Positions 47,448 to 61,337 of a stretch of DNA of 64,000 bases are shown piece after piece; position 1 is the stretch's first letter, and the number at the start of each line of letters is the position of its first letter. Source of the stretch: Escherichia phage VEcB. The translations under genes and the position numbers were made by a program. Under the pieces are notes generated by a model, which saw only the letters and a program-made list of their open reading frames with translations, was not told where the DNA came from and searched no databases. The DNA lies in sequence record NC_052663.1; one strand, given 5' to 3'.

Positions 47448-47458
47448 AGGAGAGTGAT

Positions 47459-47812: not shown

Positions 47813-47910
47813 ACATAGCTGGTAAAATCACTTATATGTTCTTAGTATACTTGTGTAAAGAAGTTATCTAACAGGTGTTGAGTGGACTATTAAATTAGGA
47901 GGGCTTTAAT

Positions 47911-48249: not shown

Positions 48250-48500
48250 TGTTAAGTATCAAACCTAAAATGATAACAGCAGATGAAGCAGACTTTATTT
48301 TCAAATGTGGACGTGTATGGAGAGAGTTCACAAAAGGGAATGAAGTGGTTGTTGTTGTCGAACACAAGATATCTATTCAGGATCTGTTTGGACAATATGT
48401 TGATGTTATTAAATTAGGTATTGACAAGGGTTTAGTTGAGGTGTTAACATTAGATCAAGTTGAAGCAGAGCACCTCGACAAAGTAGTGGTTGAATTTTAA
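48249..48500 (+). CDS. Hypothetical small protein
   Basis: ORF track; overlapping stop/start. Confidence 0.35.
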   Translation: MLSIKPKMITADEADFIFKCGRVWREFTKGNEVVVVVEHKISIQDLFGQYVDVIKLGIDKGLVEVLTLDQVEAEHLDKVVVEF

Positions 48501-48520
48501 AATACAGACGGGAGAAAGGT

Positions 48521-48694
48521 ATGAGTTTCTTTGTTACAGTATTTATGGCTATCTGGATTGTAGTCTCACTCGTTCTTTTCCTGGTGGGTTGTCTGGAAGA
48601 GATTAAGAAAGCGGTTATTTGCGGTTTCTTTGGCTTTATTATCTCTCCTGCCTGGATGTGGTTCTTCATTATGATTGGTTTCCTTAAAAGGTAA
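48521..48694 (+). CDS. Small membrane protein (57 aa, two hydrophobic helices), not in the ORF track
   Basis: ATG with GGGAGAAAGG RBS; strongly hydrophobic. Confidence 0.35.
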   Translation: MSFFVTVFMAIWIVVSLVLFLVGCLEEIKKAVICGFFGFIISPAWMWFFIMIGFLKR

Positions 48695-48708
48695 GTGAGG
48701 AATAAAGA

Positions 48709-49146
48709 ATGAGTAAAACAAACGCAATCGCAGATAAAGCAACGGATGTACTTCTGAACATGGTTAACGTCACTATTCAAACAATGAGTGATGTTGTGGA
48801 GTTTGGAAAACAACAAATTCCAGAAGTAATCCATCAATTGTTAGTGTGGAAAGCAGTATCCGCAGGTTTATGGCAACTTTTTAGTATTTGCTTTATGTTT
48901 ATTACTTTTATTGCTGTACGGAACCTCGTAAAAGCAATTAAAGATAAAGAATGCCTGTGGTCACGAGATCGCTATGGTGAAGTATCTGCTTTACCTATTG
49001 TTGGCCTTGTTGTCTGTGCTTTCTTTTTCTTTTTAGGATTTGTTATTTTCTTTTCGAATTTTGATTGGCTAAAAATCATTATTGCACCAAAAGTGTATCT
49101 GATTGAATTTGCTGCTGATTTAATTCGTTCATCTCAACAAAGATAA
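48709..49146 (+). CDS. Membrane protein
   Basis: Several hydrophobic segments; RBS GTGAGGAA. Confidence 0.4.
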   Translation: MSKTNAIADKATDVLLNMVNVTIQTMSDVVEFGKQQIPEVIHQLLVWKAVSAGLWQLFSICFMFITFIAVRNLVKAIKDKECLWSRDRYGEVSALPIVGLVVCAFFFFLGFVIFFSNFDWLKIIIAPKVYLIEFAADLIRSSQQR

Positions 49147-49158
49147 AAGGGGTTTAAA

Positions 49159-50286
49159 ATGAAATACACGATTTATGGTGATATTGTAAGTGTAAATAAA
49201 GATATGGGCGTGGAATCTAACTATCTTCCACCTGGATTCTATACTGTTAGTCGTGATCCCCTTGGCAATTATTTTTTAAGCCGTGGTAATCTGACAGGTG
49301 TACCGGATGTTCTGTATGGTGAAACAGAAAAACGAGCAAATCACGTTATTCGTACATTCCATCGCCGGAGTGCACAAGGTAAAAATACAGGCTTGCTTCT
49401 GACAGGAACTAAGGGCAGTGGTAAAACTATGTTAGCCAAACTCATTAGTCGTGACCTTGTAGAAGAAGGTATTCCAACTATTATGGTTACTCAAGCCTAC
49501 AGCGATGCTAATTTCATTGAACTTATTAGCAAGATCACCGACAAAGCAGTGATTATTTTTGACGAGTTTGATAAAGTATATGAGAAGAAACAAGATCAAG
49601 AAGCACTTCTCACTTTGTTAGATGGTACTGGCAGTGGTAATAAACTGTTTATTCTGACTAAAAACAGTGGTTTTATCTCTGAATTCTTTTTAAATCGTCC
49701 TAGTCGTGTGTTTTATAATTTTAATTATGATAAAATCTCACTAGAAACTATGATTGACTATTTAGATAAAAACCTGGATAACAAAGCACACTTTGATAAT
49801 TTCCAAAGACTTTGGGATGTAAGTTTAGAGTTGTCCTTTGATGTGATCCAAGGTATAGTAGAAGAACTTAATTTCTACCCTGATTTGTCCTTTAAAGAAT
49901 GCATCTCTATGATGGGCGTTTCTTTGGGTGGTGGTAATAAATGGGATATCAGCAGCGTTGTTATTAATGGGAAACTTCAGAAAGTTAGCTGGGTATCTAG
50001 TTGGCATAACTTTACACCTGCAATCTTTTTAGGTGGTTCGTGCACACTAGACGTGTATTTGTCATCTCCAAGTGATGCAGACTCTAAAGAAGCCCTTGCT
50101 AATAGCTCTTACGTGGTTTTTGATGATGAAGGCGATGCTCGAATTCCATTGAATGCGACAAAAATGAAAGCAGATCTTATCACAGGCGGTAAAATCGTTG
50201 TGTTTAGTGATGATCCAGAAGATTCTTTCCGTATTGTTCTGGAACCAACTATCACCAATGGTGCAACTTTGGCAAGTGTGTTTTAA
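49159..50286 (+). CDS. P-loop NTPase (AAA-like), paralog B
   Basis: Walker A GTKGSGKT, Walker B IIFDEFDK; colinear with 32464..33624; hairpin terminator downstream. Confidence 0.55.
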   Translation: MKYTIYGDIVSVNKDMGVESNYLPPGFYTVSRDPLGNYFLSRGNLTGVPDVLYGETEKRANHVIRTFHRRSAQGKNTGLLLTGTKGSGKTMLAKLISRDLVEEGIPTIMVTQAYSDANFIELISKITDKAVIIFDEFDKVYEKKQDQEALLTLLDGTGSGNKLFILTKNSGFISEFFLNRPSRVFYNFNYDKISLETMIDYLDKNLDNKAHFDNFQRLWDVSLELSFDVIQGIVEELNFYPDLSFKECISMMGVSLGGGNKWDISSVVINGKLQKVSWVSSWHNFTPAIFLGGSCTLDVYLSSPSDADSKEALANSSYVVFDDEGDARIPLNATKMKADLITGGKIVVFSDDPEDSFRIVLEPTITNGATLASVF

Positions 50287-50299
50287 GTAAGCCAGCAAA

Positions 50300-50326
50300 T
50301 AAAAACCCGCTTCGGCGGGTTTTCTT
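50300..50326 (+). terminator. Rho-independent terminator after ATPase paralog B
   Basis: AAAACCCGC-TTCG-GCGGGTTTTCTT. Confidence 0.6.
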
Positions 50327-50360
50327 GCATTAATGCCAGATTTAATAAGAGGAGTAGTAG

Positions 50361-51350
50361 ATGGCAGCACCAAAATCATGGGAACAATATAAAGAAGAGT
50401 GTATACCAATAGCAGAGAGTAAGCAAATCCAAATCTTAGGATGGACGGGACAATGGAAAGGGGTCCACACAAAACTTGATTTGTTGTGCCATTGTGGTTA
50501 TAAATGGGATACTACAAGTATTAACAGTTTTAAATGTGGTAGCGGTTGTCCACAATGTAGGAGGAAGAATATAAGGAAGTCACAAACAATGTCCGACGAT
50601 CAACATATTGCAGATTTCTTTTCTACAGGGGAATTTAAGGAAGGCACTATCTTCACTAACACAGGAACACGGGGTAAAGGATGTAGGAATATTATCTGGA
50701 TGGTTGAATGTCCTGTTTGCTCTCATGATGAATATGTTCAAGCAGGTGTTTGTGATGGTAAATTTTACTCTGAAGGAGATAACCTTAAACGAGGGTATAT
50801 TCCGTGTCGTTGTGGGAACTATCGGTATACAGAAGACCAGATCACCTATAGGGTAAAAAAGGAAGTAGAAGGGAAAGGGTATGTCTGGGTAGATTGGATT
50901 ACCAAACCCTCTTCTATAGGTAAGTTTAAATATCTTTGTCTTGTGCATGGTGAGCAGATAGGGAGTGCTCATAATTTATTAAGCCTCGGTCGAGGTTGTC
51001 CTATGTGTGCTGGTCATAGTCAGCAGCAGTTATATATTAATATTGTTAAGGATGATAATATTATAGTTGCTCTTAAGTTTGGTATAGCTAAAGATAGTGA
51101 TAGACGATTAAAAATTCAAAATAGCCGTAATATGTTTCCTATGGAGCGTATTTGTTTATATGATTTTAGCACAGTAAAACAATGTAAGGCTGCTGAAAGA
51201 GCTATAAAGAAAAAATTAAAAACTGGTATTTTAACGGAAAGAGAGTTGAAAGACGGTTATACAGAAACAGTAAGTGTTTCTGATTTGGAAAATCTTCAAA
51301 AAATTATTACACAATATGGTGGCAAATTAGTATACAGTAAGGAGATGTAA
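50361..51350 (+). CDS. Zinc-ribbon-rich protein, possibly nuclease/homing-endonuclease-like
   Basis: Several CxxC pairs (CGSGCPQC, CPVCSHDE, CPMC); RBS AAGAGGAG. Confidence 0.3.
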   Translation: MAAPKSWEQYKEECIPIAESKQIQILGWTGQWKGVHTKLDLLCHCGYKWDTTSINSFKCGSGCPQCRRKNIRKSQTMSDDQHIADFFSTGEFKEGTIFTNTGTRGKGCRNIIWMVECPVCSHDEYVQAGVCDGKFYSEGDNLKRGYIPCRCGNYRYTEDQITYRVKKEVEGKGYVWVDWITKPSSIGKFKYLCLVHGEQIGSAHNLLSLGRGCPMCAGHSQQQLYINIVKDDNIIVALKFGIAKDSDRRLKIQNSRNMFPMERICLYDFSTVKQCKAAERAIKKKLKTGILTERELKDGYTETVSVSDLENLQKIITQYGGKLVYSKEM

Positions 51351-51902
51351 ATGCGGATTACTGATAAGTATGTGTTCTTCTTTTCAGCAAAAGATGAATT
51401 TAGCAACTGGTATCTATCATCTTTTATTGAACCTTTAGCACCCAAGTATAATAATTCTATTACAAGTTCTGTTGAATTTACTTGTGTGGAACAATATATG
51501 ATGTGGAGAAAAGCATGTTTGTTTTATGATTACAGTATTGCATCTTCTATTTTAACCGGAGATCTAAGATATACAGGAGAAAAAGAACAAGCATATTATA
51601 AGCGACTAGGCAGATTAGTTAAAGATTATGATGAAGATACCTGGACTTCTTTACGGGAGAAGATTGTCAAACGTGGTTTGTATCTTAAATACACACAAAA
51701 TGAAGATCTCAAAAATAAACTTATAACCTACGCAGATAAGGAGTTCGTAGAGGCAAGCCCTTATGATTCTATTTATGGTATCAAAATGGGGATGTGGGAT
51801 CGTGACGTGGAAAATAAGGACTGTTGGAAAGGACAAAATCTTTTAGGAAAATGGCATACAGACCTTGCTGTTTATCTAAAAGCACAATCTGATATTTCCT
51901 GA
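51351..51902 (+). CDS. NADAR-domain (YbiA-like) protein
   Basis: Motifs FFFSAKDEFSNWYLSSF and W..G.NLLGKWHTDL match the NADAR/DUF1768 family pattern; ATG overlaps the upstream stop. Confidence 0.55.
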   Translation: MRITDKYVFFFSAKDEFSNWYLSSFIEPLAPKYNNSITSSVEFTCVEQYMMWRKACLFYDYSIASSILTGDLRYTGEKEQAYYKRLGRLVKDYDEDTWTSLREKIVKRGLYLKYTQNEDLKNKLITYADKEFVEASPYDSIYGIKMGMWDRDVENKDCWKGQNLLGKWHTDLAVYLKAQSDIS

Positions 51903-52099
51903 TATTTTGAAAATTTTTATTTTTATAAAAAGGGGTGTGGGTTTCATGTACGGAAATTCACCCTCTGAATAATATATTCAGAGTAAATATTATTTTGTAC
52001 TCTGTTAATAAATTATTTAATTTGTTTGTTGGATTATGATATCTGGTTTTTAAAAGGCATACTATCTCTTAACTACTATTTATAACAGAACAGTAAAAT

Positions 52100-52330
52100 C
52101 ATTTTTATAAAAAGGACAAAATTATTTAAAGTTTTTACAGATTTTTGGATACAAATTTTGAAAATGAAAAGTTCAAGTTTGGTCAAAATTATTTAAAGTT
52201 TTTGTATGTATTTCTATCCATATTTTGAAAATGAAAACTTCAATTTTTTAAAAATTCCCCAGTTTATTTAAAGTTTTTTTGCCTTTTTCCGTAGAAAAAT
52301 GAAAAATGAAAAGTTCAATTTCGTGTTTTT
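52100..52330. repeat. Three tandem ~65-70-bp direct repeats in an AT-rich non-coding region
   Basis: Each unit carries AAATTATTTAAAGTTTTT and TTTTGAAAATGAAAAGTTCAA; TTTTTATAAAAAGG also occurs twice upstream. Confidence 0.6.
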
Positions 52331-52339
52331 ATAGGTGTG

Positions 52340-52455
52340 CTAATGAGAATCATTTTCGTTTGTAAATGAGAATCATTATCATTTAACTATGTAAGTGATA
52401 ATCATTCTCAGTAAGAGAATGAGAATCATTAGCAAATGAGAATTTTATCATTTAG
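52340..52455. promoter_or_regulatory. Cluster of five 13-bp palindromes AATGAGAATCATT (and variants) resembling the Fur-box core
   Basis: Copies at ~52342, 52365, 52397 (inverted), 52430, 52434; the 52362-52380 copy matches 16/19 positions of GATAATGATAATCATTATC. Confidence 0.5.
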
Positions 52456-52714
52456 AGAATAACGCGCAGGGGTGGTGTTTGTCTCGCGCTCCCGTGTCCC
52501 CTCGCCATACAATAAGAATAGCATAACCAACAACAAAAGCAAGCGATTATTTTTATCTTTACATTTCTTTACAAATTTATTTTAGACGAGCTACCGGCGA
52601 TCAACCTTCCAACCAGTGCCCCCTGGTATGTTAGCCCCGCCTTTACGCCGTGGGGGTGGCGCTTCCTCTTCTGTATGTAAAACAGTATAAGCCCGATCCC
52701 TGGGCTTGTCAAGA

Positions 52715-53062
52715 TTATTTTTTGTTTTCTTGCCAGGATAGGACACCTAACCAAAAATACATGTCGCCCCGCGCCCCTGGTGGGATCTTGCTTTCCCCGC
52801 CGCCACTGCAAGCCCATAGATAACCATTTGCGAACGTATCAAAATGATCTATTTCTTCCACCTTATGATCGCCCAGGTTGAGAACGGTTTCAACCTTTAA
52901 GCCCGTTGCGCTTGCTACCTGGTGCACCGTGCCGCCTTGCCAGCCCAATGAGTGCATGAGGTGTAAAGTAGTATTTGTCATGGTATCGCCCTTTCTTTGA
53001 TGTGCGCCCTGGTTGGCGCGGTAGAAAGATAATAGCCCCTTTCCTTTATAGATAGCAAGCAA
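52715..53062 (-). CDS. Hypothetical protein inside a GC-rich island (true start possibly the internal Met MTNTT)
   Basis: ORF track; local GC clearly above the window average. Confidence 0.3.
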   Translation of the reverse strand: MLAIYKGKGLLSFYRANQGAHQRKGDTMTNTTLHLMHSLGWQGGTVHQVASATGLKVETVLNLGDHKVEEIDHFDTFANGYLWACSGGGESKIPPGARGDMYFWLGVLSWQENKK

Positions 53063-53248
53063 AAAAGAAATGAAAAAAGATTAAAAAAGGGGTTGACGTT
53101 CCTCACCTGGTAGCGTATTATTCATCTTGTCGAGGGGGGCGAGGCACAACGACAATAAACAAAAGGAGGGCGCAATGTAGGACGGGCAAAGGTGAGGATC
53201 TCCACAATCCACCGTCACAATAACATTACTTATAAAAGGTTGATAACG

Positions 53249-53344
53249 ATGGTCAAGAAAGAAAACAGCTTGACGGTTGGAACGATTAACGCTATCATTC
53301 TCGCCGTTCCATTTTGGATTGTAGTTGCGGTTATTATTTTCTAA
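53249..53344 (+). CDS. Small hydrophobic peptide (31 aa), not in the ORF track
   Basis: ATG downstream of TTGACG-N17-TATTAT promoter-like sequence; single TM-like helix. Confidence 0.25.
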   Translation: MVKKENSLTVGTINAIILAVPFWIVVAVIIF

Positions 53345-53353
53345 AAAATATTC

Positions 53354-53413
53354 TTGACAACGTTTTTTAATCTGATAAGATGTATCACATAGGGCGGGAA
53401 ATGGTTTCCCGCC
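53354..53413 (+). promoter_or_regulatory. Sigma70-type promoter (TTGACA ... TAAGAT) plus conserved leader hairpin GGCGGGAAA-TGG-TTTCCCGCC
   Basis: -35 TTGACA, 16-nt spacer, -10 TAAGAT; perfect 9-bp stem with 3-nt loop starting near the predicted +1. Confidence 0.6.
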
Positions 53414-53435
53414 AAATCAAAGAAAGGGTAATGCA

Positions 53436-53798
53436 ATGAGCAAGCAAATCAATACTATCATGTTAAACCTGGTATCTTTCCGCGACGACGTGAAAAATCT
53501 TCCACGTGATGCAGTGGATGCACGGATCGAAAGCTATCGCTCACAGATCGCAACGCTACCGCTAAAACGTGATCAACATGCCGCTAATATGATGCTTAAT
53601 GCTATGCTTAAAAAGATGATTCAATGTGATCTTACCCTGGCTTATGAATATGCTGGCGATCTCTTTGTAACATATAGCAAGCCCGTACCAGGTATGAGCA
53701 CAACCGAAGAATTGCATGCCTTAAATCTGCGACAAGATGCATGGGATAACATGCGCCGTGTTATGGTATGGGTAGAAAGCGGTAAAATTTACGAATAA
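53436..53798 (+). CDS. Hypothetical early protein
   Basis: ORF track; preceded by sigma70 promoter plus conserved leader hairpin. Confidence 0.5.
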   Translation: MSKQINTIMLNLVSFRDDVKNLPRDAVDARIESYRSQIATLPLKRDQHAANMMLNAMLKKMIQCDLTLAYEYAGDLFVTYSKPVPGMSTTEELHALNLRQDAWDNMRRVMVWVESGKIYE

Positions 53799-53804
53799 AA
53801 ACGG

Positions 53805-53856
53805 TTGACATTGCACTAAAACCTGATAAACTATCTTAAAGCGGGAATAGTTCCCG
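53805..53856 (+). promoter_or_regulatory. Sigma70-type promoter (TTGACA ... TAAACT) plus hairpin variant AGCGGGAA-TA-GTTCCCGCT
   Basis: Same architecture as 53354-53413. Confidence 0.5.
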
Positions 53857-53875
53857 CTTACATAGGATAAAACTT

Positions 53876-54023
53876 TATGAAACAATATGTAATGAGTATT
53901 CACACCAAAAACGGCGCTACTGTTACGACTCCGGCACGGTTTGCACTTGTAAACCGTTGCAAGAGACTAAAACGAGAGCTAAAAAACAACCGTGCAACGG
54001 GCTTTAAACGCTGGGGAGGATAA
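53876..54023 (+). CDS. Candidate mini-ORF region (two overlapping ~43-aa frames, one Cys-rich, one basic); which is translated is unresolved
   Basis: Follows promoter plus hairpin at 53805-53856; weak RBS. Confidence 0.2.
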
Positions 54024-54025
54024 TC

Positions 54026-54286
54026 TTGTTTTTTCTAAAAGTTTTTGATAATGTGATCGCTTTTGAACATGCTACAACGTTCGACCTGGCGAGATACGCT
54101 ATCAGGTTTAAAGATAATGTTTATCCCCGTGCTGGCGGCGGTTACACTATTTTTAATCATCGTAATTCCCAACTAACGGATATAACTAATCCAGATCCGG
54201 GCGTGTATCGCATAGGCTGGCTACCGTCAAAAGACGCGGCAAGCATGTTTAAGGTATGTAAACTACTAACAGAAGAGGCGAACTAA
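54026..54286 (+). CDS. Hypothetical early protein (TTG start)
   Basis: GGGGAGGA RBS 5 nt upstream of TTG. Confidence 0.4.
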   Translation: MFFLKVFDNVIAFEHATTFDLARYAIRFKDNVYPRAGGGYTIFNHRNSQLTDITNPDPGVYRIGWLPSKDAASMFKVCKLLTEEAN

Positions 54287-54287
54287 C

Positions 54288-54842
54288 ATGGGGCGTGAGT
54301 ATGTGATCCAGTCCTGGGTAAAGCATGACGCTAATGATCCGCGCATAATACCAGATGACATGATCGATCACATGGTAGGGTATAGCGGGGAGCAGATAGG
54401 AAATCGAGCGGCAAAGAGCAACGGCAACACAAAGGCGCGATCCGTTCGCCCTGGTTGGCTGGCAAATGGTAACGCTGACATTGCAAGCGCCGCAGATCCA
54501 AGCGATGACGCTAAAAATAATCCCTTATACAGTATTGATCCGGCTTTTAAGGTGTTGGAAGAGTATCCCGCTAAATTAGCCGCACTAGATAAAGCATACG
54601 AAGAAAAACGGGTGGCATGGACGGTATACAACACCGCTAAAATGGTGCTAGATGCAAAATTGATTAAAGCCCAGGAGAAGATCAATAAACTTGTTGCAGT
54701 AGCGCAAGAGGAAGACCAGGACGACCAGGAGGAAGAGGAAGAAATCATGCCTACCCTGGAAGAGGAAGAGATCCAGCCATACATGCCGACGGAAGAGGAA
54801 AAAAGACAAGCCCTAAAAAATTATGAAAATTGTATTGTGTAA
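54288..54842 (+). CDS. Hypothetical early protein with strongly acidic C-terminal tail
   Basis: C-terminal EEDQDDQEEEEEIMPTLEEEEIQ. Confidence 0.45.
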   Translation: MGREYVIQSWVKHDANDPRIIPDDMIDHMVGYSGEQIGNRAAKSNGNTKARSVRPGWLANGNADIASAADPSDDAKNNPLYSIDPAFKVLEEYPAKLAALDKAYEEKRVAWTVYNTAKMVLDAKLIKAQEKINKLVAVAQEEDQDDQEEEEEIMPTLEEEEIQPYMPTEEEKRQALKNYENCIV

Positions 54843-54845
54843 GGC

Positions 54846-54951
54846 TTGACATATGCAAACAAGCCCCGTAATATGTACCACATAAAGCGGGGCAACGCCC
54901 CATAAGGTGAAATAAAAAATCACTTGACACCTGAAATCAGTAAGCTATAAT
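54846..54951 (+). promoter_or_regulatory. Tandem promoters: TTGACA-N17-TAATAT with hairpin variant (GCGGGGC-AAC-GCCCC), then consensus TTGACA-N16-TATAAT
   Basis: Two consensus -35 hexamers 78 bp apart, both upstream of the 59-aa ORF at 54989. Confidence 0.55.
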
Positions 54952-54988
54952 GCTTATATAGATTGAAACATTACTAAGGAATAAAAGC

Positions 54989-55168
54989 ATGGCTATTATT
55001 GCAAAGACTGAGATCGTAGGTTTAGATTCTATCATCCTGGCATATGAGGAAGCTATAGAAATGTATGTGGTTTCCTATGGTGATTATATCCGTGAATATA
55101 AATCTATTGATCTAGCTTTTGAATGCTATATTCGCCAGGTCAATAAAGCCTATGATGATTATCGTTAA
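54989..55168 (+). CDS. Small early protein (59 aa), not in the ORF track
   Basis: ATG with AAGGA RBS; tandem promoters upstream. Confidence 0.4.
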   Translation: MAIIAKTEIVGLDSIILAYEEAIEMYVVSYGDYIREYKSIDLAFECYIRQVNKAYDDYR

Positions 55169-55187
55169 AAGTTTTAGTCTTGTGCTA

Positions 55188-55216
55188 TTGACAACGAACG
55201 ATAGTACAAGCATAAT
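55188..55216 (+). promoter_or_regulatory. Sigma70-type promoter (TTGACA-N17-CATAAT)
   Basis: Consensus -35; upstream of 55264..55629. Confidence 0.5.
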
Positions 55217-55263
55217 AACTTTTATCGGGAATACTCCTAACTAATCAAAAGAGATTAAAGACT

Positions 55264-55629
55264 ATGGCTAAAAATATCAATGTTTCTGCTTATGCTACCC
55301 TGGCTAACACTGCTAAAATTGAACTATCCAGCATTGAAGCGGTACATATTAGCGCCCGTCGCTGGTTTCAAAAGTCTTATGGTAACACTTATTTCTCTTT
55401 GATGGTTGACGTTGAGATCGGCGGTAAACTGATTGAAGTCGTTAACGTTCCGTTTCAATATGGCTACGGGGATCATTTTGATACCGTTGCCCTAGAAGAG
55501 TTTAGCAAGGTTATCAACCTGGAAGGTAAAGAATTTTCAAATTATGCCTACCTTTCCCGTTTTTGCCGTGACAATGGGATCACTGTATACAGTCATGCAA
55601 GCGATGTTAAACGTAAAAAAGATTTATAA
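55264..55629 (+). CDS. Hypothetical early protein
   Basis: ORF track; own promoter (TTGACA ... CATAAT). Confidence 0.45.
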   Translation: MAKNINVSAYATLANTAKIELSSIEAVHISARRWFQKSYGNTYFSLMVDVEIGGKLIEVVNVPFQYGYGDHFDTVALEEFSKVINLEGKEFSNYAYLSRFCRDNGITVYSHASDVKRKKDL

Positions 55630-55635
55630 AAAGCA

Positions 55636-55696
55636 TTGACAGCACGAATAAAAAGCATATAATACTTATATCGAGAGCGGGAATAGTTCCCGCCTC
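55636..55696 (+). promoter_or_regulatory. Consensus sigma70 promoter (TTGACA-N16-TATAAT) plus hairpin GAGCGGGAA-TA-GTTCCCGCCTC
   Basis: Perfect -35 and -10 hexamers; hairpin near +1. Confidence 0.6.
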
Positions 55697-55717
55697 ACTG
55701 AAAAAGAGATTAACATC

Positions 55718-55957
55718 ATGGCTAAATCTAAAATGTTCTTAGGTCACAAAAACAAAACTCATTGGAATGTAAGCCTTTGGATCAACAACGATGAAGGTTT
55801 TTATAATCTTGCGCGTGAATTTATCGCAGCTAACACCAATAAGAATGACGCAGCGCGTGATATGATGTTATTTCTTGAAAGTATGGATCAAGATAAAACG
55901 CCAGACGGTTACAAGTTCAGTAAAACCGCGATCCGTGCCGCTATGGTTGGAATGTAA
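55718..55957 (+). CDS. Hypothetical early protein
   Basis: ORF track; promoter TTGACA-N16-TATAAT plus hairpin upstream. Confidence 0.45.
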   Translation: MAKSKMFLGHKNKTHWNVSLWINNDEGFYNLAREFIAANTNKNDAARDMMLFLESMDQDKTPDGYKFSKTAIRAAMVGM

Positions 55958-56052
55958 AGGAGACATAAAAATGAAACATCGTTCGACCTATCTCACAAAA
56001 CGTTTTAGCTTAGATCATAAATTGGGCTATTACGGAAGAAATAGAAAATAAT

Positions 56053-56112
56053 TTGACAACGTTTTAAATTAGTGTAAGATATATCACATAGGGCGGGAAA
56101 TGGTTTCCCGCC
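56053..56112 (+). promoter_or_regulatory. Sigma70-type promoter plus canonical leader hairpin; near-identical copy of the 53354-53430 element
   Basis: About 45 bp (ATCACATAGGGCGGGAAATGGTTTCCCGCCAAATCAAAGAAAGG) identical to the leader of 53436..53798. Confidence 0.6.
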
Positions 56113-56134
56113 AAATCAAAGAAAGGTTATCATT

Positions 56135-56362
56135 ATGGCTATCGTTATTGTTCGCGTATCCGGTACGGTTGGAATCTCTCAGGTAGTAGCAGTTATCACA
56201 GAGAAGAAAGGGGATGATCTTCACTCCTCCTTGAATAGCTGGGCGGTCGCTAACTTTGGGCAATGGTCGAGCGTTGAGTACATCGAAGCCTACCAGGTGC
56301 CGACGATTAGCCTAACCGATCTAAATGTTGATCGCTTGTTGTGCCTGGATGGATTAAACTAA
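56135..56362 (+). CDS. Hypothetical early protein
   Basis: ORF track; promoter/leader nearly identical to that of 53436..53798. Confidence 0.45.
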   Translation: MAIVIVRVSGTVGISQVVAVITEKKGDDLHSSLNSWAVANFGQWSSVEYIEAYQVPTISLTDLNVDRLLCLDGLN

Positions 56363-56370
56363 AAATAATC

Positions 56371-56427
56371 TTGACAAGATAACTAAAATCAGTAAAATGT
56401 AATGCATAGGGCGGCAATAGTGCCGCT
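56371..56427 (+). promoter_or_regulatory. Sigma70-type promoter (TTGACA-N16-TAAAAT) plus hairpin GGGCGGCA-ATA-GTGCCGCTC
   Basis: Same architecture; hairpin variant shared with 60181-60237. Confidence 0.55.
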
Positions 56428-56449
56428 CATAGTAAGAGAGATTATCAAA

Positions 56450-56665
56450 ATGGCTAATATCCGCACACTGTTAAAAAATGCAAGTCAAGTTTTATTTTCA
56501 GATGACGAGTATTTCAACAAAGACATTACAGGCGTGAAAAATTTAAAAGACGTGAAGGATGTTATCGGTATCCGTGGATCTTTACGTAAAGGTGACATAT
56601 ACGGTAACAAGGTGCAATATAAACTGTCAAAAGATTATGATTTTACTTTGACATTTATTTCATAA
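56450..56665 (+). CDS. Hypothetical early protein (start at internal ATG after the leader hairpin)
   Basis: Track ORF N-terminus is the translated hairpin; ATG with AGAGAG RBS. Confidence 0.45.
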   Translation: MANIRTLLKNASQVLFSDDEYFNKDITGVKNLKDVKDVIGIRGSLRKGDIYGNKVQYKLSKDYDFTLTFIS

Positions 56666-56671
56666 AACCGC

Positions 56672-56732
56672 TTGCAATACTGCAAAAATAAAGTAAACTG
56701 TATTCATCAAGGCGGTGGAATAGCTCACCGCC
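56672..56732 (+). promoter_or_regulatory. Sigma70-type promoter (TTGCAA-N16-TAAACT) plus hairpin GGCGGTG-GAATAGCT-CACCGCC
   Basis: Same architecture with a divergent loop. Confidence 0.5.
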
Positions 56733-56756
56733 TAACAAAGAGAAGAGGAAAACATC

Positions 56757-56927
56757 ATGATCACTTTCGCCACCCGTGAAGCCGCTCGCAACGTTGCACG
56801 TAAAGTTAATGCCGCCAACCTGGGCGCTACGCTTAAAGCCCCGGTAAAAGATGAATCAGGAAAATGGATCTTCCCTGGTCTGCGTCACGCTGATAAGCTG
56901 GGAACATTAACGTTAAAAAATAAATAA
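56757..56927 (+). CDS. Small early protein (56 aa), not in the ORF track
   Basis: ATG with AAGAGGAAAA RBS; promoter plus hairpin upstream. Confidence 0.4.
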   Translation: MITFATREAARNVARKVNAANLGATLKAPVKDESGKWIFPGLRHADKLGTLTLKNK

Positions 56928-56934
56928 TATCCGC

Positions 56935-56993
56935 TTGACAGTAGCATGATTTATAAGTAAAGTAACAACAACGGCGGGAAATGGTTTCCCGCC
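56935..56993 (+). promoter_or_regulatory. Sigma70-type promoter (TTGACA-N17-TAAAGT) plus canonical hairpin GGCGGGAAA-TGG-TTTCCCGCC
   Basis: Canonical hairpin identical to the 53392 and 61294 copies. Confidence 0.55.
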
Positions 56994-57013
56994 ATCAATA
57001 AAGAGATAAGATT

Positions 57014-57373
57014 ATGAAATCAGCAAAAGCAATTAAAACTTACATTGTGTCGGCTATTTCTTTTGAAGGTACTACAACAGAAAAAGAAAAGATCACCGAA
57101 CTGATGCGCCGTTTTAACTCTGAATACTGGTATCCCGATAATCAAAAACGTTACAATTATAACGTGATCAAGGCGATAGCCTCATGGTTACAAGGTTTAC
57201 CGTCAGACATTAACATCGCCTTTGATTATAACGAGATTGATCATTTATTAATTGAATGGAAGTACATAAAAGAAACAAGCAAAGAAACAACCGTTACCCG
57301 TGAGCGGGAAAATTATTGGTTATATATTGCAAGCATGATCGTAATCCTGGCAAAACAGCATAACGTGGCGTAA
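57014..57373 (+). CDS. Hypothetical early protein
   Basis: ORF track; promoter plus canonical hairpin upstream. Confidence 0.45.
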   Translation: MKSAKAIKTYIVSAISFEGTTTEKEKITELMRRFNSEYWYPDNQKRYNYNVIKAIASWLQGLPSDINIAFDYNEIDHLLIEWKYIKETSKETTVTRERENYWLYIASMIVILAKQHNVA

Positions 57374-57388
57374 TTAAGAGGAAGAAAC

Positions 57389-57526
57389 ATGAACGCATCA
57401 CAGCAGATCGAAAAATTCAACCGCAGCAAGGCGCGTAAAGATTGGAACGAAGAGATCACCAAAAAAGGCGACAAGCGGAACAAAACAAAAAGAGATCGCA
57501 GCACAAAAAGATACTGGAACGAATAA
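57389..57526 (+). CDS. Small highly basic protein (45 aa), not in the ORF track
   Basis: ATG with AAGAGGAAG RBS; K/R-rich; immediately followed by a rho-independent terminator. Confidence 0.4.
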   Translation: MNASQQIEKFNRSKARKDWNEEITKKGDKRNKTKRDRSTKRYWNE

Positions 57527-57530
57527 CAAA

Positions 57531-57556
57531 AAAGGGCGCAATAAGCGCCCTTTTAG
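57531..57556 (+). terminator. Rho-independent terminator
   Basis: GGGCGC-AATAA-GCGCCC followed by TTTT. Confidence 0.6.
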
Positions 57557-57644
57557 CTTATATAGAGGCTTGTTACCCATAGGCAATGGTAACGCCAGGA
57601 TAAGCCTATAAACCACGTTAGACAGCTTTACAGGAGCTTTAAAA

Positions 57645-57827
57645 ATGAAATTAGACGAAATAAGCAAGGCACTAGCCCAGGGGCAAAGGTTATGCGCCCG
57701 ATATCGTGATCAATATGGCTTCATAACCAGCGGCGTGATCCTGGGGATTGAAGGCAATAAGATTTTTATTGACACGTTGAAAAACGTTGTATATAGTGAC
57801 AATATAATCTCAATAAAACATATATGA
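57645..57827 (+). CDS. Hypothetical small protein
   Basis: ORF track. Confidence 0.4.
   Translation: MKLDEISKALAQGQRLCARYRDQYGFITSGVILGIEGNKIFIDTLKNVVYSDNIISIKHI
57769..57797 (+). promoter_or_regulatory. Sigma70-type promoter (TTGACA-N17-TATAGT) embedded in the 3' end of ORF 57645..57827
   Basis: Consensus hexamers; drives the signal-peptide gene at 57836. Confidence 0.45.
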
Positions 57828-57835
57828 GGCAAGAA

Positions 57836-58237
57836 ATGAAAAAATTATTGATCGCTGGTTTAATCTCTTTTGGCATGGTTGGAACATCTAGCGCGGCGAT
57901 ATCCTCCACAGTAGCAGAATTAAGCGCCGTTGATGCAATGGAAAACGTCATGCTTATTAATAATGCGATCCCCGATGAAATCATGGAGGATTCACACATG
58001 ATCGCTTATGGTGCTGTTACACAACTAACGGCAAAAATAGATAAATCTATTGTTAACGGCTTAAATGAAGATGTGCCATGTGAAATTATTACCAGTGTGC
58101 TGACTACTCAAAATTTTACGCCGTGGTTAAAAAGTATTCAAAAAGTACACAGTACAGCCGCAGATCGTAGTAATGAAAAACTAGTGTCAGCACTTGCAAC
58201 GTATACCCTAGCAAAATGCACCGAGATAAAAGATTGA
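57836..58237 (+). CDS. Predicted secreted/periplasmic protein
   Basis: Signal peptide MKKLLIAGLISFGMVGTSSA; promoter TTGACA-N17-TATAGT inside the 3' end of the upstream ORF. Confidence 0.45.
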   Translation: MKKLLIAGLISFGMVGTSSAAISSTVAELSAVDAMENVMLINNAIPDEIMEDSHMIAYGAVTQLTAKIDKSIVNGLNEDVPCEIITSVLTTQNFTPWLKSIQKVHSTAADRSNEKLVSALATYTLAKCTEIKD

Positions 58238-58262
58238 CAACATAGAAAGCACGTTATAAGAT
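58234..58262 (+). promoter_or_regulatory. Sigma70-type promoter (TTGACA-N17-TAAGAT), no hairpin
   Basis: Consensus -35; upstream of 58285..58587. Confidence 0.5.
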
Positions 58263-58284
58263 ACACACAACAAAGGAGAACTAC

Positions 58285-58587
58285 ATGAACGGCATAGCTA
58301 AAACGTTTTTTCTTTTTTCTGGTGTAAATGATCCATCAATAAAAGTCGATAGTGTAAAAGAAAACAATACTATCACCGCTAAATTGTTTCAAGATGAAAC
58401 AAATAACGTGCTAATCATTAATCTTAAAGAAATAACGAAAGGTTATTATACTATTGCTTACCATGCAATCTATCATGCTGGTACTAGTGAGGAAGTGCAA
58501 ACAAGCAACAACGAAAGCGCGGCGCTACCTGGTGATCTGGTGCTGGGCGTTATCAGTTTAATTGTCAATGATTTTTTTAAGGAGTAA
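58285..58587 (+). CDS. Hypothetical protein
   Basis: ORF track; promoter TTGACA ... TAAGAT upstream; RBS AAAGGAG. Confidence 0.45.
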   Translation: MNGIAKTFFLFSGVNDPSIKVDSVKENNTITAKLFQDETNNVLIINLKEITKGYYTIAYHAIYHAGTSEEVQTSNNESAALPGDLVLGVISLIVNDFFKE

Positions 58588-58591
58588 AACC

Positions 58592-58687
58592 ATGCCCTAT
58601 TTACATTTATTTTTCGGGATCTTATTGTCAGGATCTTTTTTCTTCTGTATACTTGTTTCTATTGTAAACCACGTTTTAAGACATTAA
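58592..58687 (+). CDS. Small hydrophobic peptide (31 aa), not in the ORF track
   Basis: ATG 4 nt after the upstream stop; RBS AAGGAG embedded in the upstream gene end. Confidence 0.3.
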   Translation: MPYLHLFFGILLSGSFFFCILVSIVNHVLRH

Positions 58688-58696
58688 GGAAACAAC

Positions 58697-58816
58697 ATGA
58701 AAATTATTCCCGTACAGTATAGCGTAATAAATCCAGCATATGAGGAAGGAAGGAAAACAAGCATGGTTTTATGTTATATTGCTACTATAGCCATGTTGTT
58801 ATATATTGTGTTTTAA
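58697..58816 (+). CDS. Small peptide with C-terminal hydrophobic helix (39 aa), not in the ORF track
   Basis: ATG with AAGGAAAC RBS. Confidence 0.3.
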   Translation: MKIIPVQYSVINPAYEEGRKTSMVLCYIATIAMLLYIVF

Positions 58817-58845
58817 TAGGTTTTATAGTTGTACGCTTTAAAGGC

Positions 58846-58880
58846 TTGACAATTTTTTGTTATGCTTTAAACTATATCTT
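58846..58880 (+). promoter_or_regulatory. Sigma70-type promoter (TTGACA ... TAAACT)
   Basis: Consensus -35; upstream of 58917..59240. Confidence 0.45.
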
Positions 58881-58916
58881 GAAAACGGCAAAGGCCGCAA
58901 ACAAAAGGGTAAAATT

Positions 58917-59240
58917 ATGAAATCTGTGATCGGTGTTTATTTGGATAACTCTGATTTTTTCTATCATCGCGCTCGTTTCCTTGATGCGATTGAAATGATA
59001 GAATCAGGCTTTAAAGAGTATCGCCTTGCACATGATGACCTGGAAGCATTACAGGGCAATAGTGTTTTTACATTGCAAGCTAAAGCACTATGCAAAAGCC
59101 GAATCGACATTGCGAGCAAAAAGATAGAACGCGGCATGTCCTGGTTGCGCACCGCAGAAATCAACATGGGGCAATGGTACGGCGAAAACTTAGAAAATAA
59201 ACATGCTTTTGTCAATGTAGAAAATATTGAAGATTATTGA
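58917..59240 (+). CDS. Hypothetical early protein (start at internal ATG)
   Basis: Promoter TTGACA at ~58846; RBS AAAGGGTAAAA. Confidence 0.45.
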   Translation: MKSVIGVYLDNSDFFYHRARFLDAIEMIESGFKEYRLAHDDLEALQGNSVFTLQAKALCKSRIDIASKKIERGMSWLRTAEINMGQWYGENLENKHAFVNVENIEDY

Positions 59241-59302
59241 TTGACAGCACACTGAACGGGTAGTATATTGTATCTCATAGAGCGGGGAAATGGTTTCCCC
59301 GC
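59241..59302 (+). promoter_or_regulatory. Sigma70-type promoter (TTGACA-N17-TATATT) plus hairpin GCGGGGAAA-TGG-TTTCCCCGC
   Basis: Same architecture. Confidence 0.55.
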
Positions 59303-59322
59303 CTTAAAAGAAGAGATAAGCT

Positions 59323-59607
59323 ATGAAGATCACAAAAGCACTTTCCAACTATGCAGCACGTCGCGGCTTATGTTTAACCGTTGAAAACCTGGGGAAAGAA
59401 GATTTTTTGTGCTTTTGGGAGCTTGAGAATGATAATGAGTGGATCTTCTCTTATTCTATCTGCGAAGATCAAAACGGTTGTTTATTAACCTGGCGCGGTA
59501 ATATCTATCTACCGGAAGAAATCAAAGAAGAATTGCCAGGCACGATCATGACTGAGAAACAGCTTAAGGAAGTGATTAATTTTGTAGGGCAAAACATTAA
59601 AAAATAA
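59323..59607 (+). CDS. Hypothetical early protein
   Basis: ORF track; promoter plus hairpin upstream. Confidence 0.45.
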   Translation: MKITKALSNYAARRGLCLTVENLGKEDFLCFWELENDNEWIFSYSICEDQNGCLLTWRGNIYLPEEIKEELPGTIMTEKQLKEVINFVGQNIKK

Positions 59608-59608
59608 T

Positions 59609-59668
59609 TTGACACTAGGCAAACAACGTAGTAAAGTTTATCACATAGGGCGGGAAATGGTTTCCCGC
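59609..59668 (+). promoter_or_regulatory. Sigma70-type promoter (TTGACA-N17-TAAAGT) plus hairpin GGGCGGGAAA-TGG-TTTCCCGC
   Basis: Same architecture. Confidence 0.55.
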
Positions 59669-59691
59669 TCACAACAGAAGAGAAACACATC

Positions 59692-59862
59692 ATGATCCCG
59701 ACTATGTTTTACGTATCGCGCAAAGGTCACAATATTTTTTGGTCTGAAGATTTAAATGAAGCCATGACGTTTGCCCGTGATCGTGTTGCTATCGGTGGCG
59801 TTAACATTACTGTAACCGATGAAAACGGCATTGAATACTATAACGGCGACGATGAAGAGTAA
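59692..59862 (+). CDS. Small early protein (56 aa), not in the ORF track
   Basis: ATG with AGAAGAGAAA RBS after promoter plus hairpin. Confidence 0.4.
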   Translation: MIPTMFYVSRKGHNIFWSEDLNEAMTFARDRVAIGGVNITVTDENGIEYYNGDDEE

Positions 59863-59869
59863 TTAATAA

Positions 59870-59890
59870 GGCGGGGGAGTATTCCCCGCC
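59870..59890 (+). promoter_or_regulatory. Leader-type hairpin (GGCGGGGGA-GTA-TTCCCCGCC) without an adjacent consensus promoter
   Basis: Occurs between a stop codon and the RBS of 59910..60179. Confidence 0.4.
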
Positions 59891-59909
59891 GTCAATAAAG
59901 AGGTAAATC

Positions 59910-60179
59910 ATGAAAATATCTTTGGACGTTGCAATCAAGGCCATCGAATCCGGTTACACCCTGGTTAAAGATGATAAGGCTAAAACCGTGCACCACGTTA
60001 ACAAGGAAACAGGCGAAAGCATGATCACATATAAAGCCGCCTACTTTCTCCAATCAGTAGCAGATCCGCGCGTACAACGCCAGGTTACGGCGGCTATTGC
60101 TAAAAAATTATGTGCTTTACAGGGTATAAGTTTTAACGAGATCGCCCCGTGTTTTGACTGGTCGAGCTTGAAAAAATAG
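59910..60179 (+). CDS. Hypothetical early protein
   Basis: ORF track; preceded by a leader-type hairpin without an obvious promoter. Confidence 0.45.
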   Translation: MKISLDVAIKAIESGYTLVKDDKAKTVHHVNKETGESMITYKAAYFLQSVADPRVQRQVTAAIAKKLCALQGISFNEIAPCFDWSSLKK

Positions 60180-60180
60180 T

Positions 60181-60237
60181 TTGACAACAATTATAAATCG
60201 GGTAGAATGTATTTCGTAGGGCGGCAATAGTGCCGCT
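60181..60237 (+). promoter_or_regulatory. Sigma70-type promoter (TTGACA-N16-TAGAAT) plus hairpin GGGCGGCA-ATA-GTGCCGCTC
   Basis: Hairpin identical to the 56408-56427 copy. Confidence 0.55.
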
Positions 60238-60259
60238 CATAACTAAAAGAGAAATCAGC

Positions 60260-60454
60260 ATGGCGCTTAAAAAACTAACAAGCAATACTCGTTGGGATGA
60301 AATCGACGGAGAAGTTTACATTTTCGCCCGTAAACCAGGTGATCAAAAATGGTCAAAGGCTTTTACTTGCCACCCTGCAACAATAGATCTAATAAAAAGT
60401 AAAGGTTTACGTGAAGCGGTAGCAAGAAGTTTACTGATCCCTTATAAAAAATAG
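60260..60454 (+). CDS. Hypothetical small protein (start at internal ATG)
   Basis: Promoter TTGACA-N16-TAGAAT plus hairpin upstream. Confidence 0.4.
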   Translation: MALKKLTSNTRWDEIDGEVYIFARKPGDQKWSKAFTCHPATIDLIKSKGLREAVARSLLIPYKK

Positions 60455-60455
60455 T

Positions 60456-60517
60456 TTGACAATACGCGGTTATCTGGTAAAGTGTACGACATAGGGCGGG
60501 GCAATAAGGCAACGCCC
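60456..60517 (+). promoter_or_regulatory. Sigma70-type promoter (TTGACA-N16-TAAAGT) plus degenerate GC-rich hairpin
   Basis: Same architecture. Confidence 0.45.
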
Positions 60518-60535
60518 ATTAATGAGGGTAGAATC

Positions 60536-60640
60536 ATGTTAGAGAAAATTTTCACGGTTGTAGTAGTTGGCCTGGCGTTATCGGTTGGATTGGTTGCAAC
60601 TATGGCTAACATGATCCTATCTTCCCACGGTATTGGATAA
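60536..60640 (+). CDS. Small hydrophobic peptide (34 aa), not in the ORF track
   Basis: ATG with GAGGG RBS; single TM-like helix. Confidence 0.3.
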   Translation: MLEKIFTVVVVGLALSVGLVATMANMILSSHGIG

Positions 60641-60650
60641 GGTGAATCAA

Positions 60651-60866
60651 ATGATCACGAATAAGACAGGTAAAACAGAATTTTTACGCGGCTTGCAAAT
60701 AGGTAAGCCTGAGATCTGGCATTGCACTAAATCCGCGCATAATGAAATGAAAGATTTTACCGCTACTTTACAACGTGTTAAAATATCTATCACACAGAAA
60801 AAAGCCTTGTTAGTAGTAGAAAACGAGATACCGCAAACCATTATTATTGTCGAGCGTACAGCATGA
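60651..60866 (+). CDS. Hypothetical small protein (start at internal ATG)
   Basis: RBS AAGGTGA. Confidence 0.4.
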   Translation: MITNKTGKTEFLRGLQIGKPEIWHCTKSAHNEMKDFTATLQRVKISITQKKALLVVENEIPQTIIIVERTA

Positions 60867-61249
60867 AAACAGAAATCATTATTGAAATCATCAACGGTTA
60901 TAAAGAAGCCTTTATTTTTGCTGAATCAGCCAGGGATCATGAAGGTAATTTTATTGATAACTTAGACGATTATGATTTTTCAGATCAAGCCCACCAGCGG
61001 ATCATTCATGACGTAGCGGCTTATTGTGATGCCAATGATGCTGCTATCTCTGAGGCAATGAGCGACGGCGCAACAGCAAACCAGATCGGGAATGATTTAC
61101 ATTTTACCCGTAACGGTCACGGCGTAGGCTTTTGGGATCGCCCTGAAATATACACTACTAACACCGCCAACCGCCTAACAAATGCAGCTAAATTAATGCC
61201 ATCGGTGCATGCTTACATTGGTGAAGATAATTTGATTTATATCGAATAA
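60863..61249 (+). CDS. Hypothetical acidic protein
   Basis: ORF track; overlapping stop/start; D/E-rich. Confidence 0.4.
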   Translation: MKTEIIIEIINGYKEAFIFAESARDHEGNFIDNLDDYDFSDQAHQRIIHDVAAYCDANDAAISEAMSDGATANQIGNDLHFTRNGHGVGFWDRPEIYTTNTANRLTNAAKLMPSVHAYIGEDNLIYIE

Positions 61250-61255
61250 AAAGTA

Positions 61256-61314
61256 TTGACACCGATCCCCAATATGGTATTATTTACCACGTAGGCGGGA
61301 AATGGTTTCCCGCC
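61256..61314 (+). promoter_or_regulatory. Sigma70-type promoter (TTGACA-N16-TATTAT) plus canonical hairpin
   Basis: Canonical GGCGGGAAA-TGG-TTTCCCGCC. Confidence 0.6.
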
Positions 61315-61337
61315 AGGTAATCAAAAAGGTAAATACT

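Follow-up and report, generated by a model that had tools for sequence, protein, structure and literature searches.

The 64,000-nucleotide stretch of Escherichia phage VEcB analysed here (sequence record NC_052663.1; this whole stretch is called the window) contains, between positions 48521 and 60640, five very short open reading frames (ORFs), designated m1 to m5, which are predicted to encode membrane proteins of 31 to 57 amino acids. By sequence match the window is that of a Justusliebigvirus coliphage (phi92-like, Stephanstirmvirinae), with KMB37, Eryne and alia as close records: for the region 48400-60700 there are matches in 289 phage records, with Justusliebigvirus phages of E. coli the best at 96-98% identity over the full length. 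The five ORFs lie in a dense run of small + strand ORFs that extends from about 47300 to 62000.

48521-48694, + strand: m1, 57 codons, ATG start, Shine-Dalgarno (SD)-like GGGAG / AAAGG, two hydrophobic segments
53249-53344, + strand: m2, 31 codons, ATG start, SD-like AAGG only, 9 nucleotides upstream
58592-58687, + strand: m3, 31 codons, ATG start, SD AAGGAG
58697-58816, + strand: m4, 39 codons, ATG start, SD AAGGA
60536-60640, + strand: m5, 34 codons, ATG start, SD GAGGG

All five were found at exactly the positions given in a preliminary description of this DNA, each with an ATG start, and no longer ORF on the same strand overlaps any of them. The good ribosome-binding sites that had been ascribed to all of them are present at m1, m3, m4 and m5, which have clear SD motifs 7-9 nucleotides upstream, but not at m2, whose SD is weak in the window; the m2 homologs of sister lineages have AGAGG or GAGGA. 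The membrane helix proposed for each ORF was borne out by two scales. The Kyte-Doolittle mean over 19 residues is 2.2-2.9 for all five, and the summed insertion energy on the Hessa scale is below zero in one window of 17-19 residues per ORF, compared with +6 to +13 for two soluble neighbours; m1 has two insertion-competent segments on the Hessa scale, the second of them marginal. Each of m1 to m5 is thus predicted to possess a segment hydrophobic enough for membrane insertion.

A filter requiring ATG, an SD-like motif, 25-60 codons and a hydropathy of at least 2.1 returned exactly m1 to m5 from the + strand of 47300-61500 and nothing from the - strand. Dinucleotide shuffles gave a mean of 0.06 such ORFs (0.15 at a threshold of 1.8), and 0 of 200 shuffles reached five; the hydropathy threshold was picked after the ORFs had been seen, and the outcome is the same at 1.8, 2.1 and 2.4. 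Because of this excess over shuffled sequence, the observation of five ORFs is considered real and far above chance.

Conservation of m1, m2, m4 and m5

Sequence comparison indicates that m1, m2, m4 and m5 are probably real genes of this phi92-like phage, translated into very small proteins of the inner membrane. The basis for these four is conservation of the proteins across genera or subfamilies, a frame-specific excess of synonymous variation (m2, m4 and m5), ORFs that are intact in relatives, and placement behind promoters or in tightly coupled operons. Thirty related loci were gathered, and their unique variant sites (unique column differences, not events on a tree) were classed as synonymous or nonsynonymous in each frame. 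A query of IMG/VR with a neighbouring protein of 100 amino acids yielded two loci only, and GenBank phage records were used for the comparisons. A synonymous excess confined to the proposed frame was found for m2, m4 and m5; m1 has no variation, and m3 gives P 0.066.

The m2 protein has a short basic N-terminus (MVKKEN) and a C-terminal transmembrane helix that ends the protein, and is matched by tblastn in 112 phage records. Its ORF is unbroken at all 14 loci, where the C-terminus takes three forms and the downstream context two. In frame, its variant sites divide into 20 synonymous and 21 nonsynonymous, whereas 23% synonymous would be expected at random (P 2.7e-4); read in the other two frames they divide 9:32 and 8:33, and stops appear. 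In Phapecoctavirus and two Klebsiella phages (45-48% identity), m2 is the first cistron of a canonical promoter-hairpin cassette of the kind described below, and the homologs retain M-x-I/N-K-K/E-N ... G-T/I-I-N-A-I/L-I/L ... V-P-x-W. The TTGACG hexamer internal to m2 is not kept there, and because the sister-lineage homologs keep the motif without it, the conservation of m2 is at the protein level. The idea that m2 is conserved owing to its internal promoter-like TTGACG-17-TATCAT was rejected, as the Klebsiella-phage homologs that lack the hexamer retain the protein motif. The m2 stop codon in the window is 10 nucleotides before the next promoter.

The m4 protein is predicted to be tail-anchored, with a conserved N-terminal motif of 20 residues followed by a C-terminal transmembrane helix that ends the protein. 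Homologs are present in 109 records, including Rosemountvirus and a Pseudomonas phage (annotated as 'membrane protein'), and residues M1, V6, Y8, N12, A14, E17 and G18 are invariant across four lineages (Phapecoctavirus, PsgM04F and Rosemountvirus in the alignment), with a consensus of V-E-Y-S/T-V-x-N-P-A-Y/V-x-E-G-R/K. The Phapecoctavirus homolog (nepoznato gp136, 'membrane protein') is 36-39% identical and stands as first cistron behind a cassette of its own. Variant sites of m4 within the genus are 7 synonymous to 8 nonsynonymous (P 0.018). All of the Justusliebigvirus records inspected lack an annotation of m4, and some call an overlapping ORF in its place:

58771-58920, + strand: alt4, an ORF of 49 codons in another frame, called instead of m4

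This ORF is annotated in seven inspected records (KMB37, EmilieFrey, JohannJBalmer, Antha, PaulScherrer, pEC-M2929 and 92CQ), and is probably spurious: it is frameshifted in two related loci (L012 and L013), its ATG is GTG in a third (L015), its variant sites are 5 synonymous to 11 nonsynonymous (P 0.2), it has no SD and no PHROG match, and it overlaps the promoter at 58846-58873 as well as the 5' untranslated region (5'UTR) of the next gene. The m4 homolog at 13751-13870 of locus L007 (Ro121c4YLVW) is likewise left unannotated in the RefSeq record.

A predicted single-pass membrane protein, m5 is present in 155 records, spanning Stephanstirmvirinae and rV5-like Vequintavirinae. Its variant sites are 9 synonymous to 6 nonsynonymous in frame (P 5.6e-3), compared with 2:13 and 1:14 off frame. 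The ortholog in UPEC06, at 75% DNA identity, retains all 34 codons with 16 synonymous to 10 nonsynonymous differences (P 1.4e-4), and has its own promoter-hairpin cassette and a different downstream gene; m5 is also the first cistron behind a cassette in CarlMeissner. The start region of m5 in the window contains two elements:

60456-60483, + strand: m5 promoter, sigma-70-type, TTGACA, 16 nucleotides, TAAAGT; the m5 ATG is 53 nucleotides after the -10 hexamer
60494-60517, + strand: hairpin in the m5 5'UTR, a variant of the repeated GGGCGGGAAATGGTTTCCCGCC, -16.8 kcal/mol, z -3.9

Because its ATG follows the -10 hexamer by 53 nucleotides, behind the variant hairpin, m5 is the first cistron of its unit. 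A version of 52 amino acids is annotated in KMB37 and W22, starting at a GTG (60482) that lies inside the -10 hexamer of the m5 promoter, and this form matches phrog_14631 through its last 34 residues only. The 52-residue annotation is very unlikely to be correct, because of the position of that GTG and in agreement with the 34 positions of the PHROG profile. On metagenome contigs, m5 is called as versions of 48-84 amino acids.

The remaining member of the four, m1, has an internal position in a long operon, where two larger genes follow it:

48709-50286, + strand: m1 neighbours, a protein of 145 amino acids with two transmembrane segments (phrog_3054), then an AAA ATPase of 375 amino acids (phrog_2376)
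49159-50286, + strand: the AAA ATPase, to which some records give the name 'FtsH-like protease' or 'Zn metalloprotease'

An exhaustive HMMER scan with m1 found one real distant relative only, a protein of 57 amino acids (P0018) that is 36% identical and located on a contig of 151 kilobases, where the order is again a protein of 57 amino acids, a membrane protein of about 134 and an AAA ATPase; this order of genes is recorded for contig L020. The m1 homolog of Phapecoctavirus also has two transmembrane segments and is 26% identical. This conserved neighbourhood suggests that m1 may work with the adjacent two-transmembrane protein and the AAA ATPase. Nucleotide variation of m1 within the genus is zero, and because of this no ratio of nonsynonymous to synonymous substitution rates can be calculated.

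Two specific roles were considered for m1, and neither was supported. A link to an 'FtsH-like protease' fails since the neighbour is a plain AAA ATPase: a Pfam search finds a generic AAA domain only, with no peptidase or transmembrane part, and the label is unsupported because there is no peptidase domain. A role as holin or pinholin is disfavoured, with no holin match in Pfam or PHROGs, and with a two-transmembrane protein and an AAA ATPase, not an endolysin, as neighbours. In several lineages, a small two-transmembrane protein and a two-transmembrane protein of 130-145 amino acids precede the AAA ATPase.

Several points weigh against the reading of m1, m2, m4 and m5 as genes for small membrane proteins. 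A search of the literature turned up no study of this group of phages by transcriptomics, ribosome profiling or proteomics. Sequence searches of Pfam, NCBIfam, PADLOC and PDB with m1 to m5 found no characterised family. Selection on m1 can be read only from distant homologs; the variant sites of all five are column differences as defined above, and those of m3 and m4 are few; and the possibility, discussed below, that m3 is not a gene also counts here.

Annotation status

The preliminary description had called the five ORFs unannotated and invisible to length-filtered gene callers, which does not hold in general: GenBank records contain most of them and PHROGs three, and only m4 answers to the description in all of the Justusliebigvirus records inspected. 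The m1 ORF is gp219 of phi92 and is annotated in every annotated record among the matches listed (25 of 55 carriers). As a hypothetical protein, m2 is annotated in most of its 112 carrier records, though not in phi92, alia and KKP_3264; about 14 of 54 records annotate m3, and many of 155 annotate m5, sometimes as the form of 52 amino acids. Newer records (the BASEL phages and KMB37) carry m2, m3 and m5 as hypothetical proteins. The phi92 RefSeq record (locus L003) lacks m2, m3, m4 and m5, the sites in question being 9001-9105, 14639-14860 and 16272-16376.

Three PHROG families, none with an assigned function, correspond to these genes. Residues 1-57 of m1 match positions 1-57 of the 57 of phrog_22950 (E 6.9e-40), and residues 1-34 of m5 match positions 1-34 of the 34 of phrog_14631 (E 1.3e-22). 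Residues 6-39 of m4 match phrog_10979 ('membrane protein', 39 positions) with E 1.1e-7, as a divergent member, and the Phapecoctavirus ortholog matches the same family with E 5.9e-23. The PHROG search returned no family for m2 or m3. The PHROG families and the GenBank hypothetical proteins (phi92 gp219; bas61_0103, bas61_0110, bas61_0128 and bas61_0135) are the same genes in related phages, with no difference in kind. No gene call made here is new except that of m4 within Justusliebigvirus; the other point at the level of curation is that m5 truly begins with the ATG at 60536.

Promoter-hairpin cassettes

Sigma-70-type promoters are abundant in the region of the small genes. The pattern TTGACA-N15-19-TAnnnT occurs 35 times in the window, compared with 6.8 expected, mostly on the + strand between 53354 and 61283. 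Aligned on one another, these sites reveal a repeated cassette: an A-rich tract and TTGACA are followed, after 16-17 nucleotides, by a -10 hexamer, about 6 nucleotides further on by a stable CATAGGGCGGGAAATGGTTTCCCGCC hairpin (-16 to -17.5 kcal/mol), and then by A-rich sequence, an SD and the ATG. From the -10 hexamer to the ATG there are 53-55 nucleotides. The GGGCGGGAAATGGTTTCCCGCC motif was counted 13 times, where chance would give 0.54. Examples of the cassette, and the promoter of the operon that includes m3 and m4, are as follows:

53354-53435, + strand: promoter-hairpin cassette
56053-56134, + strand: promoter-hairpin cassette
59609-59691, + strand: promoter-hairpin cassette
60456-60535, + strand: promoter-hairpin cassette (that of m5)
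58234-58262, + strand: operon promoter for the gene at 58285-58587, m3 and m4, sigma-70-type, TTGACA-17-TAAGAT

The same design is found in Phapecoctavirus, in Klebsiella Stephanstirmvirinae and in Vequintavirinae, and in the phAPEC8 record the repeat carries the label 'promoter determined with PHIRE'. The cassette hairpin has no Rfam family, an Rfam search of 47000-62000 gave no family reaching threshold, and no tRNAs were found in the window. The related phage rV5 has been described as having 33 sigma-70-like promoters and 15 proteins with transmembrane domains, for which no functions were reported (PMC3606486).

A gene or a promoter spacer at m3

Of the cistrons that follow the promoter at 58234, m3 is the second and m4 the third; gaps of 4 and 9 nucleotides set them off from the ORFs before them, and the SD motif of each overlaps the preceding stop codon. 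In contrast to the other four, m3 is confined to 54 records, all of them at least 95% identical in DNA over the block; because it is confined to such near-identical genomes, a coding role of m3 is inseparable from a role as promoter or spacer. The evidence tilts slightly towards m3 being a translated gene, and it is a candidate fifth member of the set. It may instead be a 109-nucleotide T-rich spacer, extending from 58587 to m4 and containing a promoter of m4, that is open by chance and whose hydrophobicity merely reflects T-rich codons; this is quite possible, though it falls somewhat short of an even chance.

A promoter-like element inside m3 is central to the second possibility:

58625-58653, + strand: promoter-like element inside m3, TTGTCA-17-TATACT here and TTGACA-17-TATGCT in most relatives

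This element could drive m4. The slot of m3 in Phapecoctavirus holds the promoter-hairpin cassette of m4 and no ORF, and two of the four nonsynonymous variants of m3 fall in the promoter-like hexamers. Against this, matches to 10 of 12 promoter positions are frequent by chance (63 found against 45.7 expected), and the m3 region cannot be aligned with the Phapecoctavirus cassette. Derivation of the m3 DNA from that cassette was considered and rejected, as the alignment is not convincing; the hairpin and A-tract are missing from the m3 region. Compensatory covariation of the -35-like and -10-like hexamers was also considered, and the mixed haplotypes argue against it.

The state of the reading frame bears on both possibilities. 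No stop or frameshift occurs in 20 translated m3 sequences, whereas an adjoining non-coding stretch has indels, and the tblastn match is full-length and gapless in 52 of 54 records; yet 40% of random m3 variants with 8 substitutions also remain open. Variant sites are 4 synonymous to 4 nonsynonymous (all four conservative; P 0.066), compared with 0:8 and 3:5 off frame, and they lean towards third codon positions (1/2/5 by codon position); five further haplotype classes contribute no new variant sites. The SD of m3 is strong and ideally spaced, and its short gaps on both sides are those of coupled cistrons typical of the region.

No homolog of m3 outside the genus was found in PHROGs, in Phapecoctavirus loci or in a collection of 5.8 billion proteins, which was searched with concatenated queries. 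These queries (m3 with m4, and m2 with m5) found m4 and m5 but not m2 and m3, and the absence of m2 and m3 from the collection may mean only that gene callers skipped them. The tblastn search with m3 was made at E 10, alongside local searches without masking, as low-complexity masking gives a 100%-identical m3 match an E of 0.5.

Membrane micro-proteins born de novo from non-coding DNA rich in thymine have been described in yeast and bacteria. By analogy, m3 could be a young, lineage-specific micro-protein gene born from T-rich inter-cistronic DNA, the same 96 bases being also promoter-like for m4. Like those cases, m3 is lineage-restricted, T-rich and helix-encoding, and occupies a place where a relative has non-coding regulatory DNA; unlike them, it is known from sequence alone, and the m3 and Phapecoctavirus cassette regions do not align convincingly. 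Such a recent birth is permitted but not favoured by the evidence, and is considered unlikely; if true, m3 would be a case in which the de novo origin of a phage membrane protein can be dated.

Proposed action of the small membrane proteins

The early timing, inner-membrane insertion and action of m1, m2, m4 and m5 proposed here are deduced from features of the sequence. The m1 protein would form a two-helix hairpin, m2 and m4 would be tail-anchored, with a short cytoplasmic N-terminus and the helix at the end of the protein, and m5 would be a single-pass helix. Because their units have near-consensus sigma-70 promoters, together with 5'UTR hairpins, host RNA polymerase would most probably make these proteins soon after infection, and their hydrophobic segments point to insertion into the inner membrane. 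The most likely action would be packing of the helices with host or phage membrane proteins, perhaps by way of the conserved Asn and Pro-x-Trp of m2 and a small-xxx-small pattern in m5, with m4 acting through its conserved membrane-proximal cytoplasmic motif; the outcome may be modification of envelope functions during host takeover, or exclusion of competing phages. The conserved Asn and Pro-x-Trp of m2, the small-residue spacing of m5 and the N-terminal motif of m4 are more in keeping with specific contacts between these peptides and other membrane proteins than with general damage to the membrane. A role as modulators of host takeover or as exclusion factors is reasonable by analogy, and is the class of mechanism that the preliminary description had proposed, with cell division, transporters and superinfection exclusion as its examples.

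Three other explanations of the ORFs are less likely than that of genuine small membrane proteins. The peptides may be membrane-damaging effectors, similar to holins, pinholins or type I toxins, that depolarise or permeabilise the host membrane. Their size and hydrophobicity are like those of small membrane toxins and class II holins, m1 having two helices and m3 a helix in 31 amino acids with a basic C-terminus, a resemblance drawn from general knowledge. This is nevertheless rather improbable, as the ORFs are located in a region of small genes behind host-type promoters with no endolysin or spanin adjoining, no holin or toxin family is matched in Pfam, PHROGs or NCBIfam, and the conserved polar and motif residues of m2 and m4 suggest specific contacts.

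Less probable still is a leader-peptide or upstream-ORF role for m5 (and, in sister lineages, for m2 and m4), in which translation would regulate the next gene and the peptide itself would be functionless. Each candidate is the first cistron after a structured 5'UTR and ends about 10 nucleotides before the next start codon, as such leaders might. Their amino acid sequences, however, are conserved with an excess of synonymous variation; m2 and m5 persist in lineages that have different genes downstream of them, and m2 in the window is followed by a promoter with no coupled gene; a specific motif of m4 recurs in genera of phages that are unrelated; and the strong hydrophobicity of all of them is not needed by a leader peptide.

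That all five are functionless chance ORFs of AT-rich DNA is barely credible, for although T-rich sequence readily yields short hydrophobic ORFs, five were observed where 0.06-0.15 are expected, and for m1, m2, m4 and m5 the chance explanation is already contradicted by conservation, cross-lineage homologs and frame-specific synonymous excess among these four.

Neighbouring genes and related records

Several features of the DNA around the five ORFs were observed in passing. A strong SD (AAAGGAGGG) followed by ATG-TAG is located at 53162-53179 on the + strand, 75 nucleotides upstream of m2; phi92 has an ORF of 6 codons (MQDGQR) at this site. The site may mark a gene since lost, or a small ORF with a regulatory role. 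Farther upstream, the + strand gene at 50361-51902 encodes an 'endonuclease' with CapR-homology and T5orf172 domains, of which the length varies from 978 to 1398 nucleotides among relatives, and the gene after it encodes a NADAR-domain protein, called 'GTP cyclohydrolase II' in one record by mislabelling. The stretch of about 1.3 kilobases from the NADAR gene to m2 (51903-53248) has little convincing coding sequence and locally GC-rich patches. It contains a - strand ORF matching phi92 gp224 and a strong - strand promoter match at 52712-52684, and varies in length among relatives: alia annotates a 'repeat_region' and KMB37 differs by about 330 bases. No Rfam match was found in this stretch.

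A sixth small hydrophobic protein is encoded outside the range of m1 to m5, at 46379-46525 on the - strand (48 amino acids, MLFFKLNIAFCLF...; phi92 gp211 and bas61_0094). Its gene is tightly packed between its neighbours, is annotated in relatives, and has a 33%-identical homolog on a related contig (L020).

Among the records that match the region, four entitled 'UNVERIFIED Campylobacter phage' (MG065639, MG065645, MG065656 and MG065689) are 95-97% identical to this genus of E. coli phages across the whole of it, and their assignment to a Campylobacter host looks doubtful.

Comparison with known small membrane proteins

The bacterial proteins AcrZ, MgtS, MgrB, SgrT, KdpF and CydX, of 30-50 amino acids with a single helix, bind larger membrane proteins. 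The products of the ORFs described here are like them in size, in the single helix and in the type of mechanism proposed, but are phage-encoded and have no match in NCBIfam or Pfam. T4 Imm and Sp, HK97 gp15 and P22 SieA are small inner-membrane proteins of phages that serve in superinfection exclusion or host takeover, made early or constitutively, with lengths of about 80-160 amino acids or more; the present ORFs are smaller and lack sequence similarity to them, and no homology to a known exclusion protein of the T4 Imm/Sp type was found in PHROGs, Pfam, NCBIfam or PADLOC. With class II holins and pinholins such as S68 of phage 21, m1 shares the presence of two transmembrane helices in fewer than 70 amino acids, but its operon contains a membrane protein and an AAA ATPase rather than a lysis cassette, and it matches no holin family in Pfam or PHROGs.

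Small phage membrane proteins are a well-recognised class (PMC11323111), to which m1 to m5 add little that is new in kind, their value being modest and mainly one of annotation. Most members of the class are uncharacterised. The m4 gene is a conserved gene that the inspected Justusliebigvirus records have missed, with alt4 called instead in seven of them. The products of m2 and m5 are among the most widely conserved of a fast-changing region of small genes, m5 extending over two subfamilies, and m4 reaches unrelated genera. Because of this conservation, m2, m4 and m5 would be sensible first targets in a search for the effects of phi92-like and rV5-like phages on the host envelope, and such experiments would be feasible because phages of this kind are represented in the BASEL collection and serve in work on phage therapy.

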